Shown here: one piece after another, positions 4,565 to 14,981 of the stretch
Layout of the letters: each line of letters starts with the position of its first letter
Position numbering within the stretch: position 1 is the stretch's first letter
From: a virus
Lineage: Duplodnaviria; Heunggongvirae; Uroviricota; Caudoviricetes
IMG/VR virus record: IMGVR_UViG_2606217106_000010
Coordinates: 1-14,981 of that record
Reading direction: 5' to 3' (one strand)
Length of the DNA stretch: 14,981 nt
The notes under the pieces: model-generated
Seen by the model: only the letters and a program-made list of their open reading frames with translations
The model's database searches: none
What the model was told of the DNA's origin: nothing
Position numbers and translations under genes: made by a program

Positions 4565-5848
4565 TTACTTCTTCGCCTCTGCAACCACTTTACTACCCAC
4601 GCCGCGGTTATTGTATTCCCACATGCGGTTGTAGTTAGTGTCATTCAGATTGCGCTGTATTTCGTCGTTATCATCTACGCTGCCGGTATTACCCGCAAAC
4701 GGACGATTAGAGATCACCGCATCGGCCCACGGTTTAGCCGTGTTAAAACCTTCGTTGATGGCGCTATCACGGATCACCACCTGACCGTTGGTATTGGCAT
4801 CAACATCCAGCGAGCGGCCCAGTTGCGCCACACCATCACCGAAAGCATTGAAACGGCTGTTTACGGCGAGGAAACCGTAGTAAATGTTGGACAGCGTAGC
4901 CGGTGCAAACACATACGCTTCTTGCTGAGTACGTGAGTTCACCACGCGGAATTCGGTGTTATCGAACACCACTGCGCCGCGACCAGAAACGATATCCACA
5001 TCCCCTTCAATGTAGCTGTTGGTCACCAGCGTACGCGGCTGACGATTTGTTTCCAGACGGTTCTGCACACCGCTGTTGGTGACAAAGAAGGTGTTCTGAC
5101 GACCGAGAATGTTAACGTTGTTAATCTGTACCTGGTCACCATCAGTACGCAGTGCCACCGCCGGATGGTTACCTGCATCTACGCTATCGCCCAGCGTGTT
5201 TTCGATGGTCAGATTTTGCAGTTGCAGGCCATTGTTTTGTGACCAGAAGACCGCAGAGCAGAGAACACCGATACTGTCGCTGCGTTTGCTCTGGCAGCTA
5301 TCGTACATATACCACGCTGGTTTACCTGGCATATATTTGCCGCGCGGGTTGACGTCGTGACGCCAGTCGGCAGGGCTCATGCCACCATCAAGGGAAAGCC
5401 CAATCTTCACATCAATCGGTTTTTCACCTGTACCGTACAGAGTAATTCCACCCGGAGCGGCAGGGACATATACCGTTCCCTGATACTCACCAGGCATCAC
5501 GGCAATATACTGGCGCTTGTTGGTACGCTTGATAATTGCCGCATCTACCGCCGCCTGAATCGTGGTATGCGTTACACCTTGAGTGCCCGCCGGGCCGACA
5601 ACAAAGTCAGGTTGCGCAGGCAGGGTAATCGGGGAAGGATTCCACGCTGCAGCACCTGGTGTCAGGGATGCAAAATAGTGTTGAGCATCGAAATTCTGCG
5701 CTTCTTTTGCCGACAGAATCGGGCGAGAAGAGGTACCAGGCGCGGTTTGATCAGAAGGACGTTGATCGGGCGGGGTTGAGCTACAGGCGGTCAGCGTCAC
5801 GCCAAAAGCCAATGCCAGCGCCAGACGGGAAACTGAAAATGTGTTCAC
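4565..5848 (-). CDS. ybhC: Outer-membrane lipoprotein YbhC (pectinesterase-family fold; putative acyl-CoA thioesterase)
   Basis: 427-aa ORF with a lipoprotein signal peptide and lipobox (MNTFSVSRLALALAFGVTLTAC...). It is the last host gene before attB-lambda in E. coli, and its length matches YbhC. Confidence 0.9.
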   Translation of the reverse strand: MNTFSVSRLALALAFGVTLTACSSTPPDQRPSDQTAPGTSSRPILSAKEAQNFDAQHYFASLTPGAAAWNPSPITLPAQPDFVVGPAGTQGVTHTTIQAAVDAAIIKRTNKRQYIAVMPGEYQGTVYVPAAPGGITLYGTGEKPIDVKIGLSLDGGMSPADWRHDVNPRGKYMPGKPAWYMYDSCQSKRSDSIGVLCSAVFWSQNNGLQLQNLTIENTLGDSVDAGNHPAVALRTDGDQVQINNVNILGRQNTFFVTNSGVQNRLETNRQPRTLVTNSYIEGDVDIVSGRGAVVFDNTEFRVVNSRTQQEAYVFAPATLSNIYYGFLAVNSRFNAFGDGVAQLGRSLDVDANTNGQVVIRDSAINEGFNTAKPWADAVISNRPFAGNTGSVDDNDEIQRNLNDTNYNRMWEYNNRGVGSKVVAEAKK

Positions 5849-5879
5849 AGGTTGCTCCGGGCTATGAAATAGAAAAATG

Positions 5880-5982
5880 AATCCGTTGAAGCCTGCTTTT
5901 TTATACTAAGTTGGCATTATAAAAAAGCATTGCTTATCAATTTGTTGCAACGAACAGGTCACTATCAGTCAAAATAAAATCA
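5880..5982. other. Lambda-type attL (bacterial arm, 15-bp common core, phage P-prime arm with Int arm-type and IHF sites)
   Basis: Core GCTTTTTTATACTAA at 5895-5909 is preceded by host sequence TGAAGCCT and followed by GTTGGCATTATAAAAAAGCATTGCTTATCAATTTGTTGCAACGAACAGGTCACTATCAGTCAAAATAAAATCATTATTTGATTTCAATTTTGTCCCACTCCC, which is the lambda attP P-prime arm as I recall it. Confidence 0.92.
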
Positions 5983-7053
5983 TTATTTGATTTCAATTTT
6001 GTCCCACTCCCTGCCTCTGTCATCACGATACTGTGATGCCATGGTGTCCGACTTATGCCCGAGAAGATGTTGAGCAAATTTATCGCTTATCTGCTTCTCA
6101 TAGAGTCTTGCAGACAAACTGCGCAACTCGTGAAAGGTTGGCGGATCCCCTTCGAAGGAGAGACCTGATGCTTTTCGTGCGCGCATAAAATACCTTGATA
6201 CTGTGCCGGATGAAAGCGGTTCACGACGAGTAGATGCAATTATGGTTTCTCCGCCAAGAATCTTTTTGCATTTATCAAGTGTTTCCTTCATTGATATCCC
6301 GAGAGCATCAACATGCAATGTTGTTGGGATGGCAATTTTTACGCCTGTTTTGCTTTGCTCGACATAAAGATATCCATCTACGATATCAGACCACTTCATT
6401 TCGCATAAATCACCAACTCGCTGCCCGGTAACAACAGCCAGTTCCATTGCAAGTCTAAGCCAACATGGTGATGATTCTGCTGCTTGATAAATTTTCAGGT
6501 ATTCGTCAGCCGTAAGTCTTGATCTCCTTACCTCTGATTTTGCAGCGCGAGTGGCTGCGACCGGGTTTGTTGTTATATGGCCTTCAGCCATAGCCTCTCG
6601 GAATGCATCGCTCAGTGTTGATCTGATTAACTTGGCTGATGCCGCCTTTCCCTCGTCTATGTATCCATTGAGCATTGCCGCAATTTCTTTTGTGGTGATG
6701 TCTTCAAGTGGAGCATCAGGCAGACCCCTCCTTATTGCTTTAATTTTGCTCATGTAATTTATGAGTGTCTTCTGCTTGATTCCTCTGCTGGCCAGGATTT
6801 TTTCGTAGCGATCAAGCCATGAATGTAACGTAACGGAATTATCACTGTTGATTCTCGCTGTCAGAGGCTTGTGTTTGTGTCCTGAAAATAACTCAATGTT
6901 GGCCTGTATAGCTTCAGTGATTGCGATTCGCCTGTCTCGGCCTAATCCAAACTCTTTACCCGTCCTTGGGTCCCTGTAGCAGTAATATCCATTGTTTCTT
7001 ATATAAAGGTTAGGGGGTAAATCCCGGCGCTCATGACTTCGCCTTCTTCCCAT
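5983..7053 (-). CDS. int: Phage lambda-type integrase (tyrosine recombinase)
   Basis: 356-aa ORF MGRRRSHERRDLPPNLYIRNNGYYCYRDPRTGKEF...HLLGHKSDTMASQYRDDRGREWDKIEIK, near-identical to lambda Int by recollection. It sits directly against the P-prime arm of attL, as in a lambda lysogen. Confidence 0.96.
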   Translation of the reverse strand: MGRRRSHERRDLPPNLYIRNNGYYCYRDPRTGKEFGLGRDRRIAITEAIQANIELFSGHKHKPLTARINSDNSVTLHSWLDRYEKILASRGIKQKTLINYMSKIKAIRRGLPDAPLEDITTKEIAAMLNGYIDEGKAASAKLIRSTLSDAFREAMAEGHITTNPVAATRAAKSEVRRSRLTADEYLKIYQAAESSPCWLRLAMELAVVTGQRVGDLCEMKWSDIVDGYLYVEQSKTGVKIAIPTTLHVDALGISMKETLDKCKKILGGETIIASTRREPLSSGTVSRYFMRARKASGLSFEGDPPTFHELRSLSARLYEKQISDKFAQHLLGHKSDTMASQYRDDRGREWDKIEIK

Positions 7054-7145
7054 TTCTGATCCTCTTCAAAAGGCTACCTGTTACTGGTCGATTTAAGTCA
7101 ACCTTTACCGCTGATTCGTGGAACAGATATTCTCTTCCATCCTTA
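7031..7145 (-). pseudogene. xis: xis remnant: only the C-terminal ~37 codons of lambda-type excisionase remain
   Basis: The reverse strand encodes ...KDGREYLFHESAVKVDLNRPVTGSLLKRIRNGKKAKS* and overlaps the int start as in lambda. Lambda-like sequence ends near 7145/7146, with no upstream xis start codon or N-terminal coding sequence. Confidence 0.75.
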
Positions 7146-7155
7146 TATAACCAGG

Positions 7156-7336
7156 TGAATCATTTGATACCGACAAGGGTTTTAGTGAAAGGAGGTGAAA
7201 TCACCTGTAAGATACTGAAATAAAACAGGTGATGGCTAGATGTGCGGATAAGGTCTATTTGATACCGATTGTGCAATAATTAGTCATTTATTATAAAATC
7301 GGCAACTCATTTGATACTGTGGTTTTAGTCTTTTAA
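7156..7336 (+). repeat. Putative left end (attL) of a Mu-like transposable prophage with three direct transposase-binding-site-like repeats
   Basis: CATTTGATACCG at 7161-7172, TATTTGATACCG at 7256-7267 and CATTTGATACTG at 7308-7319 are direct repeats; repeats 1 and 3 are each followed by GGTTTTAGT. Spacing of ~95 and ~52 bp resembles Mu L1-L2-L3. A candidate terminal 5'-TG lies at 7156-7157. Confidence 0.55.
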
Positions 7337-7377
7337 GGCGTTCCAAACAATGCGAAATACTCGATATAGTGCAAAAT

Positions 7378-7406
7378 GCGGGCTAATGCTATTAACCCGC
7401 TTTTGG
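7378..7406 (-). terminator. Possible hairpin terminator overlapping the 3' end of the repressor gene
   Basis: GCGGG (7378-7382) and CCCGC (7396-7400) form a 5-bp stem with a 13-nt loop, flanked by a T/A-rich run on either strand. The stem is short. Confidence 0.3.
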
Positions 7407-7937
7407 TTCTACCGCGTTAGATTTGCGACTTCTCTCAGTTTCTTCCAAAATCTCTCTGACGCGTTCGTCAGACATACCTTCAAGCTGTAATGCAGCTATT
7501 CTTTTCCTTCCTTCTAAGCGGATTAGATCTTGATTTTCAGGCTCTAACAACCGAGCTAAGTACTTGGCTCCATTCAGAACCAAATTTTTCGATAGCTGCT
7601 CTAAGTCTTTTTCATCAAGTGCGCTGATAATCGTCATAATTATCTTCTTGCTTTCATCTTGATTTTCCTTGATCTCACAACGATTCACTTGTGATGCATC
7701 ACTGAATCCACATAGCCACTCAACACTTACTCCTTCGATAGACGCAATCTGAAGGGCGACACTTAAGGATGGCTCAGTGCCACGAGACAGATAATTGTTT
7801 AGTGTTGAAAATGAAAGCCCCCAATCTCTTGCTGCAGCTCTGACGCTGCGGGAGCCAATCAGCCTTTTCAGACGCTCAGCAATGCTTTCTTTTCTACCAC
7901 CAGGAAAAGAAAGAGATGTTGTTGTTTGCTTGTTCAT
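7392..7937 (-). CDS. Prophage repressor with Cro/CI-type HTH, in the position and orientation of Mu c
   Basis: 181-aa ORF divergent from ner. The N-terminal region (IAERLKRLIGSRSVRAAARDWGLSFSTLNNYLSRGTEPSLSVALQIASIEGVSVEWL) has the pattern of an XRE/CI-family HTH. There is no obvious S24 peptidase domain. Confidence 0.7.
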   Translation of the reverse strand: MNKQTTTSLSFPGGRKESIAERLKRLIGSRSVRAAARDWGLSFSTLNNYLSRGTEPSLSVALQIASIEGVSVEWLCGFSDASQVNRCEIKENQDESKKIIMTIISALDEKDLEQLSKNLVLNGAKYLARLLEPENQDLIRLEGRKRIAALQLEGMSDERVREILEETERSRKSNAVEPKAG

Positions 7938-8121
7938 TTTCTTTTCTTCCTATCAATTTGAAATTATTAACTTTTAGTGTTGTCAGCAACCATTGATCCA
8001 CAATAGACAAAAGAAAGATGTTTTTTTGCTTTACATGAAGCAGAAGTGGATCAATACTTATATCAAATTTGATAACTAAGTTTAGTTATCAAATTTCGTA
8101 ACTTTTTAGGATAGATGAATC
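7938..8121. promoter_or_regulatory. Divergent promoter/operator region between the repressor and ner
   Basis: AT-rich 184-bp intergenic region containing a 14-bp perfect palindrome TATCAAATTTGATA (8061-8074), a further half-site copy TTATCAAATTT (8086-8096), and a 10-bp inverted repeat ATTGATCCAC (7993-8002) / GTGGATCAAT (8046-8055). Confidence 0.5.
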
Positions 8122-8352
8122 ATGGCGAGAAATGAAGTTAAGCCTGATTGGCATCCTCAAAGAATTTTGGGGGAAGTCAGAGCCAGAGAAGGAAGCATGA
8201 GGGCGCTGGCCCGTAAAGCTGGCGTGGGTCAGAACAATCTGTACAACGCGGTATACCGCCATGTTCCCAAGTATGAGGGGATTATCGCGGAATGCCTGGG
8301 GGTGCCGCCCGAGGAGATTTGGCCCAGCCGCTACATTCGTAAGGTCGCGTAA
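8122..8352 (+). CDS. ner: Ner-like DNA-binding protein (Mu Ner / Nlp family)
   Basis: 76-aa ORF containing the motif EEIWPSRY (cf. Mu Ner ...PEVIWPSRY) and a KPDWHPQRILG N-terminus resembling Mu Ner. It is the first gene of the rightward operon and sits immediately before the transposase gene. Confidence 0.85.
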   Translation: MARNEVKPDWHPQRILGEVRAREGSMRALARKAGVGQNNLYNAVYRHVPKYEGIIAECLGVPPEEIWPSRYIRKVA

Positions 8353-8354
8353 TT

Positions 8355-10442
8355 ATGTTTGCTTCAGTCAAAGAACTGGTTGGATTACCGGGGATGCCGG
8401 GAACGGAGCAAGGCGTTCGCTATTCAATCAGGAAGTATGCAACCAGCGAAACCAGCAGACGCCGCAAGAAAGGCGCTAAAGGTTTTGAATACAGCATTGA
8501 CTGTTTACCTGAAGTGACACAGCAGGCATTACGCGAACGTTATGCCCTGCAACTGATGACGCAAAAAGCCGATGAATCACCGGCTCCGGTGGTGACAAAG
8601 GCCAGACGCTCGTCTGCCGTGGTTGATGCGGTGGAGGCATATCGCGGATCACCACAACTGATGGTCGAACGCCTCAATGCCCTGACTGAAAACCAGCGCC
8701 AGGTGGCAGACGCACGCATTGCGATCGTCAGTGAGGTGCTGAAATTCACGCAACAACCCGGTTTCAGCTGCGCTAAAGCTATCCGGTTCATCGTTGACCG
8801 CCTGTCACACTCGCAACTGGATGAGCGCATTGTGGCAATGGTTGAGATAGCGAACGCCAGAAAGGGAAACAGTCGCGTGTTGAGTGAAATCACGCTGAAA
8901 CGCTGGATTGCGGCCTTTAATAAGGCACAGAACGCTGCTGAACGCCTGCTTTTGCTGGCACCAGGTAAACGCCAGGAAATAAAAGCCGAAGATATTAACT
9001 GGTTGCCCGAATTTCTGGCGCAGTATCGCCAGTCAAACGGCCGACCAATGACCGAGGCTTACGAGGATTTTGTTGCCGAATGGCAGCACCGGCACGCTGA
9101 TGAGCCTTATATGCTCGATATCATGCCGTCTTATGACACCATTCGCCGCGCAATGAAGAAACTGCCGGAAGTGGTGAAACAAAAAGGACGGGTTACCGGC
9201 AGTGAATACCGCCAGCTTGAGGGATTCACGCGCCGCGACTGGTCAAAAATGCCGGTGAATTATGTCTGGATTGGTGACGGTCACGGCATGAAGCTGAAAT
9301 GCGCGCACCCGGTTCACGGGCGGCCATTCGCACCGGAAGTGACCTTTGTTATCGACGGTGGCACGCGCTTTGTGGTGGGCTGGAGCCTTGACCTGGCTGA
9401 AAATGTTTTCGCCGTAGCCGGTGCCATACAGCACGGTATTCGCCATCATGGCAAACCGTTTCTGTATTACTCGGATAATGGCTCCGGGGAAACCGCCGAC
9501 GTCCTGGATAAGGAGATTGTGGGGATACTGCCACGACTGGGGATTAATCACCCGACAGGGATTGCCGGTAATCCGCAGGGACGGGGCATTATCGAACGGC
9601 TTAACCGCACATTACCGATGCGCATAGCCCGTAAATACCGCACCTATTTCGGGAAAGGAGCAGATCGCGAGACGTTACGTAAAACCAACCGCGATTTACG
9701 CTCGGCATTCAGTGCCCTGCAACAGGGCAAACGGCTGAACGCCCGGCAGCAGTCAGCGATGCGTGATTTACCGTCCTGGTCTGAACTGATTGATGCCATT
9801 CGTGACGGTGTTGAGTGGTACAACAACCGGCCGCACGATGAATTACCCATGAAGCCGAACGGTAAACATTACAGCCCGGCGGAGTTCAGAAAAAAACGCC
9901 TGGCGGAAGAGGACACGGAAATTGAATGGCTGTCCGATGTTGAACTGCGGGATATGTTCCGGCCGATGGTGGAGCGCCCTGTAAGACGCTGTGAAATACG
10001 CTGGCTGAATAATATTTACTACGCGCCCGAGCTGCGTGACGAGCATGGCCGTAAGGTACTTATCAGCTATGACATTCATGATGCCGAACGAATTACCGTG
10101 CGCCGCCCGGATGGCAGCGTGATTTGCGAGGCGGTATGGGACGGCAATAAACGCGAAGCCTTCCCTGTCAGCGCGGAATACTACAAACAGCAGCAGCGCC
10201 TTAAAGGCATGCGTAAACGCGCAGAGGAAAAAATCCGTGATGCCGAGGATGAGGTTGTCAACGTGCTGGAGCACAAGCCGCAGGAGCCCTGGCTGGAAAA
10301 CATATACCGCCCTGTGGGTAATACGGTGACCGTTCAGCAACCGGTCGCTGACGATGAACCTGATGAAGAATACGAGCGTAATTTCCAGCGGGGATTGCAA
10401 CTGCTCGAAGCGAAATTAAAAGAAAGTGATCCGCTGGCCTGA
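8355..10442 (+). CDS. MuA-family DDE transposase (transposable-phage transposase A)
   Basis: 695-aa ORF. Its N-terminus resembles the MuA enhancer-binding domain (cf. Mu MELWVSPKECANLPGLPKTSAGV...GVKGGKAIEY versus here ...GLPGMPGTEQGV...GAKGFEYS). The catalytic-core region VWIGDGHGMK...ILGWSLDLAEN parallels Mu WINGDGY...ILGWRCDVSEN. It is followed by a B-like gene. Confidence 0.92.
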   Translation: MFASVKELVGLPGMPGTEQGVRYSIRKYATSETSRRRKKGAKGFEYSIDCLPEVTQQALRERYALQLMTQKADESPAPVVTKARRSSAVVDAVEAYRGSPQLMVERLNALTENQRQVADARIAIVSEVLKFTQQPGFSCAKAIRFIVDRLSHSQLDERIVAMVEIANARKGNSRVLSEITLKRWIAAFNKAQNAAERLLLLAPGKRQEIKAEDINWLPEFLAQYRQSNGRPMTEAYEDFVAEWQHRHADEPYMLDIMPSYDTIRRAMKKLPEVVKQKGRVTGSEYRQLEGFTRRDWSKMPVNYVWIGDGHGMKLKCAHPVHGRPFAPEVTFVIDGGTRFVVGWSLDLAENVFAVAGAIQHGIRHHGKPFLYYSDNGSGETADVLDKEIVGILPRLGINHPTGIAGNPQGRGIIERLNRTLPMRIARKYRTYFGKGADRETLRKTNRDLRSAFSALQQGKRLNARQQSAMRDLPSWSELIDAIRDGVEWYNNRPHDELPMKPNGKHYSPAEFRKKRLAEEDTEIEWLSDVELRDMFRPMVERPVRRCEIRWLNNIYYAPELRDEHGRKVLISYDIHDAERITVRRPDGSVICEAVWDGNKREAFPVSAEYYKQQQRLKGMRKRAEEKIRDAEDEVVNVLEHKPQEPWLENIYRPVGNTVTVQQPVADDEPDEEYERNFQRGLQLLEAKLKESDPLA

Positions 10443-10524
10443 AATAAAAAAATAACCCGAGGGGTGACTCAGGTTATTTGAGGTTTCAGTCTCGGAGAAT
10501 GCTGTCTCAAGCGAGGTGAATAAT

Positions 10525-11457
10525 ATGACCGATATTAACGATGTAATCAAGACCATTGATGAACTTATTGATGGCGGCGTACTGACGCAGTATGCCATCG
10601 CCAGAGAGGCGGGAATTTCCGACGGCACATTATCGGCTTTCCGTAAGGGAAAATATAAAGGCGATAACGCTGCTGTGGCTGCTTCCCTGCGCTCCTGGTA
10701 TGAGAACTGGAATAAACAAAGCGCACTGCCGGAACCGCCGCAGTTTGTGGAAACTCAGACAGTCCAGGAGCTGCGCGCACTGTTTCAGGCGGTTCGCCTG
10801 ATGGGCTGTATTAACGTTATTGTGGGCGTACCGGGTGTGGGTAAAACGGCCACTGCCCGTAATTACTGCCAGGAGCAACCAAACACCTGGATGATCACCC
10901 TGTCACCCGCGCACTCCAGCGTCACGGAGTGTCTGCTGGAGCTGGCCGATGCGCTGGGGATTGATTACACCCGCGCGAACAAAGGGGCATTATCCCGCGC
11001 CATCCGCCGTCGCCTGATGGGAACGCGTGGACTGGTGATTGTGGATGAGGCGGATCATCTTGGTATTGACGGTCTGGAGCAACTCCGGGCAATTCAGGAC
11101 GCCACGGGGATCGGGATGGTGCTTATTGGTAACCCGCGCGGATTGTTTAAAGGTGGACGCCGCGCCTTTGATGATTTATCGCGCCTGTTCAGCCGTCTTG
11201 CCCGTACAAAACAACTTCGCAAGGCCAAAAAGGCGGATGTGCTGGCCATTGCCAGGGCATGGGGTATCAGTGGTGAGGCCGAGCTGGCCGTCATGCAGGC
11301 TATCGCTGAAAAGCCGGGAGCGTTACGCGTTCTGACACATACGCTTAACCAGGCGTGGCTCACCGCCAGCGGTGAAGGCGCGGCGCTGACAGAAAAACAT
11401 ATTAATGCGGCCTTTAAAGAGGTTTATACCAACCCTGAATTACTCTCACAGGTGTGA
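10525..11457 (+). CDS. MuB-family AAA+ ATPase / target DNA activator
   Basis: The provided ORF starts at GTG 10516; the ATG at 10525 with a GAGGTG RBS upstream is the more likely start. Walker A VGVPGVGKT and Walker B LVIVDEADHL are present. Strong resemblance to Mu B (PEPPRFVETQTV..., QKPGALR...). Confidence 0.9.
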   Translation: MTDINDVIKTIDELIDGGVLTQYAIAREAGISDGTLSAFRKGKYKGDNAAVAASLRSWYENWNKQSALPEPPQFVETQTVQELRALFQAVRLMGCINVIVGVPGVGKTATARNYCQEQPNTWMITLSPAHSSVTECLLELADALGIDYTRANKGALSRAIRRRLMGTRGLVIVDEADHLGIDGLEQLRAIQDATGIGMVLIGNPRGLFKGGRRAFDDLSRLFSRLARTKQLRKAKKADVLAIARAWGISGEAELAVMQAIAEKPGALRVLTHTLNQAWLTASGEGAALTEKHINAAFKEVYTNPELLSQV

Positions 11458-11459
11458 TT

Positions 11460-11681
11460 ATGGTGATATTTAATATTCCTGATATTTACGGACGCTTTCA
11501 CCTGGTGAATTTCGATAACGTCAAAGCAGTCTCCGTGTCTGACAGTGAAGAATGTGGCGATTTACTTTTTGAATTTAATGATCGCACCAGAATGGCAATA
11601 TCGGCAGGACTTGATCGTGAAGGTGCGAAAGAAGCTTACAGCAATATTTGTCGTTTTATCGGTGCAAAACGAATCAGCTAA
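11460..11681 (+). CDS. Hypothetical small early protein (positional equivalent of Mu kil)
   Basis: 73-aa ORF starting at an ATG that overlaps the end of the B gene (a GTG at 11454 is an alternative start). It has the same orientation as the early operon. No recognisable motif. Confidence 0.5.
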   Translation: MVIFNIPDIYGRFHLVNFDNVKAVSVSDSEECGDLLFEFNDRTRMAISAGLDREGAKEAYSNICRFIGAKRIS

Positions 11682-11693
11682 ACGAGGTGTTAT

Positions 11694-11948
11694 ATGAATA
11701 TGCAATCCTGCGGTAACAAAATGAATTTATTCGACTCCCTGAACAGCGCGCGCCGTCTGACCGAACTTGCCGGTGCGGTACTGGAACGCAGTAAGCGCTA
11801 CCCACAACGTTTTGCACTGAAAACCACGCCGCCGGTAGGCAACGTGCAGGGAACCGGTGAAATTGAAATCACCATACAGACCAACGGCCTGCGCCGCCGT
11901 GTGAAGGCCACCCGCATAAGCGGATGCACGGTTTACTGGGAGGTGTGA
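11694..11948 (+). CDS. Hypothetical early-region protein
   Basis: 84-aa ORF with a GAGGTG RBS 5 nt upstream, tightly packed in the operon. Function unknown. Confidence 0.5.
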   Translation: MNMQSCGNKMNLFDSLNSARRLTELAGAVLERSKRYPQRFALKTTPPVGNVQGTGEIEITIQTNGLRRRVKATRISGCTVYWEV

Positions 11949-11949
11949 G

Positions 11950-12231
11950 ATGAAACGAAATCTGATTGCGTGGGCGTGGTCGAGCGGTCTCATTGAGTTT
12001 GGTTACGTCCTGCCGGAAGGTGCATTGCCGATAGTTGCCGGAAAGCCTGCCACAGTACGGCATGTGATTGAGGTTATGGCGCGTCATGGACGTGATGAAC
12101 AGGAGCAGTTACTGGTTCCGGGGATACCGGAAGCGGTGACGGAGGAAGAAGCCTTTAATGCCATGATTCGGTTCTGCCGTGAGGTCAGACGCCGGGTCAG
12201 TTATCCAAACAGAACGAGGACCAGAGGATGA
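11950..12231 (+). CDS. Hypothetical early-region protein
   Basis: 93-aa ORF with a GGAGGTG RBS. It starts 2 nt after the previous stop and overlaps the next start (ATGA). Function unknown. Confidence 0.55.
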   Translation: MKRNLIAWAWSSGLIEFGYVLPEGALPIVAGKPATVRHVIEVMARHGRDEQEQLLVPGIPEAVTEEEAFNAMIRFCREVRRRVSYPNRTRTRG

Positions 12232-12500
12232 GTAAAGTTGTACGCATTATTTTCGAATACAAGGAGCACGTTATCCATAAAAACGCTGATGAAACAGTGC
12301 ACATGGGGGTAAGTCTGGGCATACGTTCAACCGGGATAAAGCAGAAAGGTGATGGACCCGCCATGATTTTTGGGGTGGTTATGCTCGCGGAAAGCAGAGA
12401 CTTTGCTGAACTTGTGGCAATGAAAGCCAGAGCGCTCATGAAAGATATGAACATGAGTTCCGGGGTTATTAAAGGTAATGAATTTAATCAGCAGGGGTAA
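12228..12500 (+). CDS. Hypothetical early-region protein, paralog A (N-terminus MSKVVRIIFEYKEHV)
   Basis: 90-aa ORF whose start overlaps the upstream stop (ATGA). Its N-terminus is shared with the next ORF. Confidence 0.55.
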   Translation: MSKVVRIIFEYKEHVIHKNADETVHMGVSLGIRSTGIKQKGDGPAMIFGVVMLAESRDFAELVAMKARALMKDMNMSSGVIKGNEFNQQG

Positions 12501-12504
12501 TTCC

Positions 12505-12798
12505 ATGAGCAAAGTACGCGTTATTTTTGAATTTGAGCATGTTTCGCATGACGAAAAGCTGGCAGGCAATGACTGTGTTGAAGTGCATGAAAAGATTGGT
12601 GTGGATGTGAAAACAGAACGTGATACGGAGAACAGCCCGACGTCACTCTGTGATGTTTATGCAAGTATTCTCCAGTATCACAGTCCTGCAATTATTCATT
12701 TCCTCTCAGCGGAATTTCAGGCATCTGCACAGGATTTTGGAGCGGATGCCATCATTAAACGCCACCGCGTGCATAAAGCATCAGGCACACTGCAATAA
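12505..12798 (+). CDS. Hypothetical early-region protein, paralog B (N-terminus MSKVRVIFEFEHV)
   Basis: The provided ORF starts at 12478; the ATG at 12505 has a better RBS (AGGGG) and gives the N-terminus MSKVRVIFEFEHVSH, which parallels the preceding gene. Confidence 0.55.
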   Translation: MSKVRVIFEFEHVSHDEKLAGNDCVEVHEKIGVDVKTERDTENSPTSLCDVYASILQYHSPAIIHFLSAEFQASAQDFGADAIIKRHRVHKASGTLQ

Positions 12799-12809
12799 GG
12801 AAAAACAAA

Positions 12810-13340
12810 ATGGCTAAACGCGTTACAAAATTAAAGGCCGCAGCCGAGGCCGCACCACAGACCCGCGAAGAAGTCAGCCGCGATATCCGACGCTTTGGGG
12901 ATATGCAGCGTGAGGCGCTGCGCCTGGAAACAGCGATGAATGACGAAGTGGCAGAAATTACCGCCCGTTATACGCCGCAGATTGAAAACCTTAAAAAAGA
13001 AATCAAAGTGCTTTTTAAAGGGATTCAGGACTGGTGTAAAACCAACCGCAATGAGCTGACGAACGGCGGTGAAACCAAAACAGCCAATCTGACCACCGGA
13101 ACGGTGTCATGGCGGCTGGGAACGCCATCATGCAGCGTCAGCCGTGATGTGGAAGGCGTGATTGAAATGCTGCGCCGTATGGGCCTTGAGCGCTTCATCC
13201 GCACGAAAGAGGAAGTGAATAAGCAAGCTGTCCTGGCGGAGCCGGATGCGGTGAAAGACATTGCCGGTATTAAGGTGAATAAAGGCGCTGAAAGTTTTTA
13301 TGTCGAGCCTTTTGAACAGGACGCCGGACTGAACAAATAA
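12810..13340 (+). CDS. gam: Gam-like host-nuclease inhibitor / DNA-end-binding protein (Mu Gam family)
   Basis: 176-aa ORF resembling Mu Gam along its length by recollection: LQREALRLETAMNDEVAEITARY..., NRNELTNGGETKTANLTTGTVSWR..., RFIRTKEEVNKQAVLAEP..., PFEQDAG. Confidence 0.88.
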   Translation: MAKRVTKLKAAAEAAPQTREEVSRDIRRFGDMQREALRLETAMNDEVAEITARYTPQIENLKKEIKVLFKGIQDWCKTNRNELTNGGETKTANLTTGTVSWRLGTPSCSVSRDVEGVIEMLRRMGLERFIRTKEEVNKQAVLAEPDAVKDIAGIKVNKGAESFYVEPFEQDAGLNK

Positions 13341-13437
13341 CACCGCATTAAATCTTTAAATATCACTTCATTTTAATTATGGCGCTCGCGTCAGGGGACT
13401 GCCTGCGCCTGTAAACTGAAAATAAGGAACAGGAAAT

Positions 13438-13980
13438 ATGGCATATTTTTATTTCAAATTAGACTGTGTGCAGACAAATAAATATTTCACCAAATATCAA
13501 CAGACTGTTTTACCGCTACGCAACAGTATTCTTCGGGCGTTACTGAAAAATACAGGCGCTACCGGATTGCGCTTAAAGCCGTTCGCCATGGACGTAATCA
13601 GTGAGTTTTATTTTTCCGGTGCTCTGCCTGCGGGCTGGTGTAAGCGCGATGATGTGGCTTTTATCGGTGGTGGACAGTGCTTTATAGCCAGACCTGATGA
13701 GTCATGCCCTGAAGGAGCGGCGATTGCCGCAATGATTGAAGCCGCTGAACGCGAGTTAAGAAAGCGTCCTGATTTCCTTGTCTGGCTCTGTGAAAAGCTG
13801 GGGGTAATGAGAATCCCCTCCATGTTTAACACAGACTCCTGGTGGACCCCGTCTCTCTCCCGTGATGCCCTGTGCGTGGTGTTTAAAGTAGGTGCTTATG
13901 GCAGGGAAATAAACGGGCGTATTCCTGAAGAATGTCAGGAAATTAAACATTCTGAATATGTGGCGCTGACGGAGGAATAA
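13438..13980 (+). CDS. Hypothetical protein (late part of Mu-like early region)
   Basis: 180-aa ORF with an AAGGA RBS, preceded by a 97-bp AT-rich gap after gam. No recognisable motif; it contains several Cys residues without a clear zinc-finger spacing. Confidence 0.55.
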   Translation: MAYFYFKLDCVQTNKYFTKYQQTVLPLRNSILRALLKNTGATGLRLKPFAMDVISEFYFSGALPAGWCKRDDVAFIGGGQCFIARPDESCPEGAAIAAMIEAAERELRKRPDFLVWLCEKLGVMRIPSMFNTDSWWTPSLSRDALCVVFKVGAYGREINGRIPEECQEIKHSEYVALTEE

Positions 13981-13983
13981 TTC

Positions 13984-14517
13984 ATGATAGATGCAAAAGT
14001 GCTTGAAGGGGTTAAAAACTGGCTGAGCATTTACGGGCGTCTGACCTGCGGCGTTCTGGCTCAAAGAATGAATATGCCGCCATCCTCGATGGTCTATTTT
14101 CTGCGTGATGCGGTTGATGCCGGTGTGCTGACAGAATGTAACGGTTTTTATGATATTCCGCGTCCCCGCCCGGTACAGCCGGTTCGTCGCAAATGCCGCC
14201 AGGAGTCTGTGGCTGATGATGTTCAGTGGTGCAGCTTCAGAAAATCCCTGCCGTGGGTTGAAGGGCATGATATTCCGTCGATGGCGTGGGAATTTGCGCA
14301 GGGCGTTCTGACCTGTGAAACCGTTTATGTGGTGGCTGAAGTTGATGAGCAGGCAATGAAAGAAGGTGTGCCCCAGTTTGTGATGGCGTATATCGACATT
14401 CGCCTGGGGACCATTATCTGCGGTTTAAGCGGCTGGAATATCACCGAACATGTTCTGCGTTACCTGATTGTTGACCGGACGGCAGCGCCTGCCGGGATAT
14501 CTGCGGAGGTGGCGTAA
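13984..14517 (+). CDS. Hypothetical protein, possibly with an N-terminal winged-helix-like domain
   Basis: 177-aa ORF with a GGAGGA RBS, starting 3 nt after the previous stop. Residues ~15-50 (IYGRLTCGVLAQRMNMPPSSMVYFLRDAVDAGVL) resemble a winged-HTH pattern; this is inference only. Confidence 0.5.
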   Translation: MIDAKVLEGVKNWLSIYGRLTCGVLAQRMNMPPSSMVYFLRDAVDAGVLTECNGFYDIPRPRPVQPVRRKCRQESVADDVQWCSFRKSLPWVEGHDIPSMAWEFAQGVLTCETVYVVAEVDEQAMKEGVPQFVMAYIDIRLGTIICGLSGWNITEHVLRYLIVDRTAAPAGISAEVA

Positions 14518-14979
14518 TGTTCTTTAAAACATCGAACCCTTCCGCGCTGGCTGCGTGGCAAAAATATCAGCAGGACTGCCAGCAAGTTAAGGATGAGGCA
14601 AAACGCCTTGAGGCCGTGCTGAATGTTGAGTGCCGGTCGGTATTTGTATCCGGTATCAGCGGTTTTTGTTTTAAGGGGCTGCGTTTTACGAATGACAAAT
14701 ATCCTTTTCATCGTGATTTATGGCGAAAACCGACTGCGTCGAATGGCTGGAGCTGCACGCCGCGCACATCGCGCATTCCCAAAGCCCTGCGCACTGCCTC
14801 TGACGAACTGAACAGTCTGTGGCGTGAATATTCGCCCGTCACGTATGCCAGAACCGATGCCCTGTTGTTCTGGCTGGGCATTGATTTCTCAGCAATCCTG
14901 TATGGCCCTGTGGAGTGGTTCTGCGTTGACGATGTGATTTATCTTCAGTGCGGTGTAAAACCCGCAAATCAGAAAATGA
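14518..14979 (+). CDS. Hypothetical protein, 3' partial (runs off window end)
   Basis: An ATG at 14518 immediately follows the previous stop (TAATG). The frame stays open for 154 codons to the window edge (MFFKTSNPSALAAWQKYQQDCQQVKDEAKRLEAVL...). It is absent from the supplied ORF list, probably because it has no stop codon within the window. Confidence 0.45.
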
Positions 14980-14981
14980 CC

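Follow-up and report, generated by a model that had tools for sequence, protein, structure and literature searches.

A lambda-type attachment site, a full-length integrase gene and the last part of an excisionase gene stand side by side in the DNA examined here, and the locus raises the question of why xis breaks off where it does and what the DNA beyond the break is. The window analysed is the entire contig JNRB01000090.1 (14,981 bp) of the draft short-read assembly GCA_000704465.1, and it stops inside a Mu-like phage, in a gp12-like gene. An earlier note on this DNA had read positions 5880–7145 as a lambda-type prophage end with a truncated excisionase gene.

Attachment site and integrase gene

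The left part of the window contains the following features:
4565–5848, minus strand: ybhC (427 aa), a chromosomal gene on the gal side of lambda attB
5895–5909, plus strand: attL common core, GCTTTTTTATACTAA, 15 bp, equal to lambda 27724–27738
5910–6025, plus strand: attL P′ arm, through the annotated Int arm-site block; it overlaps the 3′ end of int
5983–7053, minus strand: int, lambda-type tyrosine integrase, 356 aa, full length (Pfam Arm-DNA-bind_1 and Phage_integrase)
7031–7145, minus strand: 3′ remnant of xis, comprising K36–S72, the stop codon (7031–7033), and a single base from codon 35, with no start

To the left of the attL core, the flank is E. coli chromosomal DNA from the ybhC side, and many genomes of the species match it with 100% identity. 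The gene itself was identified by 100% identity to E. coli genomes in which ybhC is annotated and by a Pectinesterase Pfam match. A flank of this kind is what the gal-side junction of a lambda lysogen would be expected to show. The common core was read directly and agrees with both the misc_recomb feature of J02459 and the ungapped alignment, and the Int arm-site block annotated in J02459 (lambda 27814–27854) falls at 5985–6025 of the window.

The alignment to lambda int–xis that the earlier note had proposed as a check was carried out as an ungapped comparison with lambda J02459 27724–28974, which ends at 7145 and gave 21 mismatches in 1251 bp (98.3% identity). No mismatch was found between 5895–6078 and lambda 27724–27907; the core and the P′ arm are thus identical to lambda, and their earlier description as intact stands. 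The integrase was likewise correctly called full length. It retains all six catalytic residues (R212, K235, H308, R311, H333, and Y342; RKHRH-Y) and differs from lambda Int at 5 of 356 residues (I155M, H164P, A245T, I248V, and E264K; 98.6% identity), in line with the few differences noted earlier. The int–xis region is 99.8% identical to mEp332, with further matches in HK106, HK630, and 30-odd other records, and the identical Int protein is present on at least 1000 contigs. In view of these identities and the five Int substitutions, the element is a lambda relative and not laboratory lambda, as had been supposed.

The core, the P′ arm, the integrase, the Xis remnant, and the position adjoining ybhC are all held in common with the lambda int–xis–attP module. 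Compared with a lambda lysogen at attB (gal–bio), the locus differs in that xis is interrupted after codon 35, and the remaining prophage is outside the window. As a recombination module composed of attL, Int, and Xis, the locus is therefore incomplete: attL and Int are present as in lambda, whereas an intact 72-codon xis is not.

The excisionase remnant

The remnant of xis consists of 37 codons and one base, and it overlaps the start end of int. It carries one change relative to lambda Xis (G59S) and is identical to the matching part of the intact 72-aa Xis of NZ_CP042350.1, in which the int–xis DNA is 100% identical to that of the window. An in-frame TGA is located five codons upstream of the remnant, within the foreign DNA, and no start codon follows this TGA. 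In each of the 36 phage records spanning this segment (36/36), and also in E. coli genomes, lambda-type homology extends to 7145 and no further. Both the coordinates given in the earlier note (5880–7145) and its count of the last ~37 codons without a start were accurate. A lambda-type int–xis is carried by 2,003 of 5,426 complete E. coli genomes, and some relatives with the same int–xis allele are already degraded remnants.

The break in xis as a phage terminus

The DNA to the right of the break begins with the following features:
7146–7391, plus strand: left end (attL) of a Mu-like prophage, with the terminus TATAACCAGG
7162–7172, 7257–7267, and 7309–7319: three repeats ATTTGATAC(C/T)G (ATTTGATACYG), presumed MuA binding sites L1–L3

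The terminus was fixed by the window together with eight other independent insertion sites. A look-up of the identical MuA protein returned ten places, which represent eight other independent chromosomal contexts, and these were aligned on an internal anchor. In all eight (8/8), sequence like that of the window extends down to the T at 7146 (TATAACCAGGTGAATC...) and is directly preceded by unrelated DNA. Ten further insertions of the Sp18 group (O157) break at the same base, reading TGTAACC, which brings the independent insertions with this fixed left terminus at unrelated genomic sites to 18 besides that in the window (8 + 10). That one element is found at many unrelated genomic positions, always ending at the same base, indicates transposition and not site-specific integration. 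The sequence from 7146 onward also matches E. coli chromosomal loci at unrelated positions, annotated as Mu transposase C-terminal domain protein, XRE regulator, and HTH protein, as well as “inserted Bacteriophage Mu-like phage” annotations in two Stx-converting phages. The assignment of the repeats is based on the motif count against chance: three copies are present at the left end, ~18, 113, and 165 bp from the terminus, against 0.01 expected.

Judged from the sequence, a Mu-like prophage fills the window from 7146 to its right-hand edge, and the 7145/7146 break is exactly where its left terminus lies. The earlier description of xis as truncated therefore holds in one respect and fails in another. 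The copy seen yields no Xis, but the cause is not trimming or decay, because the break is the Mu-like left terminus. The best-supported reading of the sequence is that xis would be interrupted by a phage insertion of ~38 kb, with its 5′ half expected ~38 kb away and not lost.

The reading of the earlier note was that xis had been cut short by a deletion or by prophage decay, with the DNA to the right being what the deletion left behind. The presence of only the 3′ 37 codons of xis is in agreement with such an event, as are the many E. coli strains with degraded lambdoid remnants bearing the same int–xis allele. We nevertheless regard it as very improbable, since the break falls on the very base at which a mobile element ends at the 18 other independent sites, and the 7.8 kb that follows has the collinear arrangement of a Mu-like early region; a deletion endpoint has no reason to land exactly on a transposon end. 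An assembly chimera, in which a lambda-type attL–int–xis fragment was wrongly joined to a Mu-like prophage from elsewhere, might be suspected in a short-read draft whose 14,981-bp contig ends inside a phage, and the Mu terminus shares TAACC with the part of lambda xis just beyond the break point (a small microhomology). Misjoins, however, need shared repeats of k-mer length and not of 5 bp, and a misjoin is not expected to recreate an exact transposon terminus that is defined by many independent insertions. With the contig recorded for two samples as well, an artefact of this kind is improbable in the extreme.

The explanation that we favour, and hold to be very probable, is that a Mu-like, Sp18-type transposable phage inserted into xis of a lambda-like prophage, or of a remnant of one, at the ybhC-side attB. 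In the proposed course of events, the lambda-like prophage or prophage remnant would first have been seated at the classical attB adjoining ybhC, and the Mu-like phage would then have transposed between the third base of xis codon 35 and codon 36.

Gene content of the Mu-like prophage

The genes to the right of the left end are as follows:
7392–7937, minus strand: repressor, Mu c analogue, HTH/XRE type, 181 aa (weak matches to Pfam HTH_3 and Phage_CI_repr; called a transcriptional regulator in the annotation of relatives)
8122–8352, plus strand: ner-like early regulator, 76 aa (Pfam HTH_35, E = 1e-21)
8355–10442, plus strand: MuA-type transposase, 695 aa (Pfam Mu-transpos_C 2e-17 and HTH_Tnp_Mu_1 1.6e-8, both above curated cut-offs)
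10525–11457, plus strand: MuB-type AAA+ target-DNA activator, 310 aa, directly downstream of MuA (Pfam Phage-MuB_C 2.5e-25 and AAA_22 4e-18)
11460–14981, plus strand: Mu-like semi-essential early region of small ORFs, the last of which is the start of a gp12-like gene cut by the contig end (Pfam Phage_Mu_Gp12)
11694–11948, plus strand: kil-like ORF (Pfam Kil_protein)
12810–13340, plus strand: gam (Pfam Phage_Mu_Gam 2.6e-40)
13984–14517, plus strand: Gp11-like ORF (Pfam Gp11_C)

The early-region architecture is that of Mu (Muvirus), with c on the opposite strand followed by ner, A, B, kil, and gam, and the MuA, MuB, and Gam Pfam domains are common to both. The repressor gene has the position and orientation of Mu c and is transcribed toward the phage left end, hence toward xis′–int. 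There is no nucleotide similarity to Mu, and MuA matches Mu structures only over its N-terminal domain (1TNS in the PDB, E = 7e-6). Matches to the predicted DDE core were weak (rve, E about 0.004–0.007; RSV integrase core, 1.6e-4). SfMu, Mu, and D108 were considered as close relatives and set aside, as none gave a megablast match. As a whole, 7146–14981 is collinear and 99.1% identical with two prophages in other E. coli assemblies (L003 and L006).

A scan of 5850–8400 for promoters and terminators gave no signal above chance. Between the first and second terminal repeats, nested inverted repeats are present at 7193–7237 (AGGTGAAATCACCT and CACCTGT...16 nt...ACAGGTG), which are a possible host-factor or regulatory site. 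In a sibling assembly (GCA_000704505.1), the same Mu-like segment is found on a 3.7 kb contig only. The break of the contig past 14981, inside the Mu-like early region, suggests a second, partly similar Mu-like copy that collapsed the assembly at that point.

Right end and target duplication

A full-length relative was used for the part of the phage that is outside the window. This relative (NZ_CP145714.1, L002) is 38.4 kb long including an IS5, has the same left terminus, extends through com/mom-like genes, and splits bcsA. It encodes homologues of Com and Mor as well as a module for contractile-tail morphogenesis. At its right end, the motif core TTTGATAC occurs three times in inverted orientation, ~18, 40, and 75 bp from the terminus. 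The transposase sites of Mu are arranged as L1–L3 and R1–R3. The repeats of the present lineage, three per end as in Mu and with the right end taken from the relative, resemble this layout in their spacing and are putative transposase binding sites.

The right terminus, ...GCGCTATA, was fixed by ORFs in which the N-terminus of a host gene is fused to a peptide read through from the Mu-like end. Inspection was directed to the fusion ORFs covering the C-terminal half of the query, which join different host-gene N-termini to the same peptide. In all of the more than 20 inspected, the read-through peptide begins at the same terminus, TAT AGC.

The origin of these fusions is an open frame that leads out of the Mu-like right end (YSAAIFLIPICISFDTAEKRRYATYLILNRRFSFEF; L002 about 38790–38896, minus strand). 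As a result, gene callers report “hypothetical proteins” of well over a hundred kinds, in which the N-terminus of a disrupted host gene is joined to the Mu-end peptide. Those seen here were P0162, P0176, and P0184–P0269, some with misleading names such as “terminase small subunit” and “YtfJ family protein”. Such host-gene::Mu-end fusions provide a ready catalogue of insertion sites.

The length of the target duplication was determined on the bcsA insertion by an empty-site test. When the two flanks were joined with one GACG, the composite matched uninterrupted bcsA with 100% identity over exactly 296 bp, and the duplication is therefore 4 bp. For the insertion in LC727881, the annotation also gives a duplication of 4 bp, so that a simple insertion with a short duplication was found in both relatives in which the two ends were examined (2/2). 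The bcsA and LC727881 insertions allow one further feature to be predicted in the window:
7142–7145, plus strand: CTTA, predicted left copy of the 4-bp target-site duplication

A 5-bp duplication with the terminal T counted as a host base was also considered. It was rejected because every insertion site has this T and because, in the window, the base does not come from lambda; a length of 5 bp is also at odds with the empty-site test, which gives exactly 4 bp. The right end of the lineage reads ...TA-3′. At the left end, 10 sites of the subgroup to which the window belongs have TA, and 10 sites of the Sp18/O157 subgroup have TG. In phage Mu, the target duplication is 5 bp and the termini are TG...CA; the lineage of the window appears to differ from it in both respects, with 4 bp in the two relatives and TA...TA. 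The positions of the duplication or terminus are 7146–7149 in the window, 38889–38900 in L002, 1495–1505 in L014, and 174–185 in L015.

Searches for the junctions

If the Mu-like phage was inserted in xis as proposed, its genome would continue for ~38 kb beyond 7146 and end in ...GCGCTATA. The right junction would then be expected to read ...GCGCTATA-CTTA-ACCGGAGG..., or in longer form ...CGGTATCAAAAAAATCGCCGCGCTATA-CTTA-ACCGGAGG(A/T)GGGAATATCC..., continuing into the 5′ half of xis and any part of the lambda-like prophage that survives. With the right end outside the contig, the 5′ half of xis, pI, and further lambda-like DNA are expected and not seen in the window.

The viral, species-representative genome, and metagenome contig collections contained neither the exact left junction nor the predicted right junction (GCGCTATA N0-6 TAACCGGAGGNGGGAATATCC). 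The absence of the left junction as well indicates that the source genome is simply outside the scanned collections. The left junction, a Mu-like end in a lambda-type xis, was also found in 0 of the 5,426 complete E. coli genomes. For the predicted 72-aa fusion ORF, Xis(1–36)::Mu-right-end, no full-length match was obtained among 5.8 billion called proteins; the 31 candidate matches inspected proved to be either Xis variants, intact or altered in other ways, or unrelated fusions of host genes to the Mu end.

These results bear on a variant of the insertion model in which the Mu-like phage entered xis and a Mu-mediated rearrangement followed, replicative transposition having deleted or inverted the neighbouring DNA. 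In that event, xis′ would adjoin the Mu left end, the right end would lie beside unrelated DNA, and the 5′ half of xis and the other parts of the lambda-like prophage would have been deleted or displaced. Replicative transposition of the Mu type is known to yield such changes, the right junction was found neither as DNA nor as a fusion ORF, and the contig break in the Mu-like genome fits a second, partly similar Mu-like copy. On the other hand, a missing right junction is to be expected anyway for a source genome outside the scanned collections, from which the left junction is missing too, and both relatives examined at their two ends showed simple insertions with short duplications. A later rearrangement is accordingly unlikely.

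Consequences for excision and transcription

On the simple-insertion model, the consequences for the resident element follow from established lambda biology. The locus would provide no functional Xis, and Int-mediated attL × attR excision would thereby be blocked. From this textbook knowledge, the lambda-like element is probably excision-defective, in agreement with the earlier note. In lambda, pI is located at the 5′ end of xis and pL further upstream, and the insertion would cut int off from both promoters. If Xis were provided in trans, the circle released would still be oversize by ~38 kb and above the packaging capacity of lambda. The separated promoters and the unpackageable composite would both reinforce the expectation that excision does not occur, and we infer that the lambda-like element is effectively grounded. 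Phages of the Mu type replicate by transposition, with no excision in their life cycle; the disruption of xis would therefore be essentially permanent. The Mu-like phage itself may still be active.

With the insertion in place, the Mu-like repressor gene would be the sole source of transcripts entering int from upstream on its own strand. No recognisable terminator was found between this gene and int, which is weak negative evidence. A leftward transcript from the repressor gene could thus drive constitutive Int in the absence of Xis, and the Mu-like phage may gain from disabling the excision of a resident competitor. The 4-bp duplications and TA termini, if biochemically uncharacterised so far, would in turn represent a variant transpososome geometry. 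That the insertion has a meaning of this sort beyond chance disruption, be it constitutive Int or a disabled competitor, together with such a variant geometry, is a doubtful proposition to which we give little weight.

Comparison with Sp18-like phages

Sp18 from strain Sakai (E. coli O157:H7) and the Sp18-like Mu-like phages found in STEC are transposable prophages of about 38–40 kb with the same gene order as the element in the window. From the interior of MuA (~8471–8528) to the window end, the identity to Sp18-like phages, e.g., Mu_JNE082796 in the Stx2c phage LC727881, is 94–95%. The terminal sequence and the TTTGATAC repeats are also common to both, and the annotated duplication of the Sp18-like phages is 4 bp. 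They occupy variable chromosomal sites and are also found inside other prophages. In the STEC CC119 lineage, ten Sp18-like Mu-like phages were reported in 13 closed genomes, and 6 of the 10 were inside other mobile elements including Stx prophages; the variable location was attributed to transposition (PMC10132054). Sp18-like prophages in O157:H7 also have strain-specific locations (PMC7430833).

The element in the window differs from the Sp18 group in its immunity region (7320–8470; repressor, ner, and the MuA N-terminus), which is unalignable by blastn, and in its left terminus, TA and not TG. Its insertion site, a lambda-type xis, has no counterpart in the complete E. coli genomes. The Mu-like phage is mosaic, with 7320–8470 unalignable with the Sp18/O157 group and the remainder 95% identical. 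By sequence comparison, the element looks like a heteroimmune variant made by recombination. The MuB allele of the window is the very common Sp18 type (>21,000 index blocks), while the MuA allele is much rarer (213 blocks).

A nested prophage of this kind is an already known event that involves a known phage lineage, and Mu-like insertions in resident prophages have been published before; the finding itself raises no new question. Its main value is the correct annotation of the locus, in which an apparently decayed, xis-truncated lambda remnant is a phage within a phage. Prophage predictors and readers of draft contigs may easily misread such a junction. The locus adds one more case of a transposable phage grounding a resident prophage, an event that can fix prophage-borne genes in a lineage and builds large composite elements.

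Chromosomal neighbours

Two observations concern the surroundings of the attachment site. The ybhI ORF (anion permease) at 517–1887 of the window encodes 456 aa, compared with 477 aa in other members of its protein cluster and in NZ_CP042350.1. The 456-aa form is present on 134 contigs, and this frequency indicates that it is probably a lineage-specific start or upstream change. At least one complete E. coli genome (NZ_CP007442.1, positions 775729–775858) has kept only ~130 bp identical to window 5911–6040, which covers P′ arm sequence and the end of int, in a stretch that carries no annotated gene. This segment resembles a minimal scar left by a lambda-type prophage at the ybhC-side locus.
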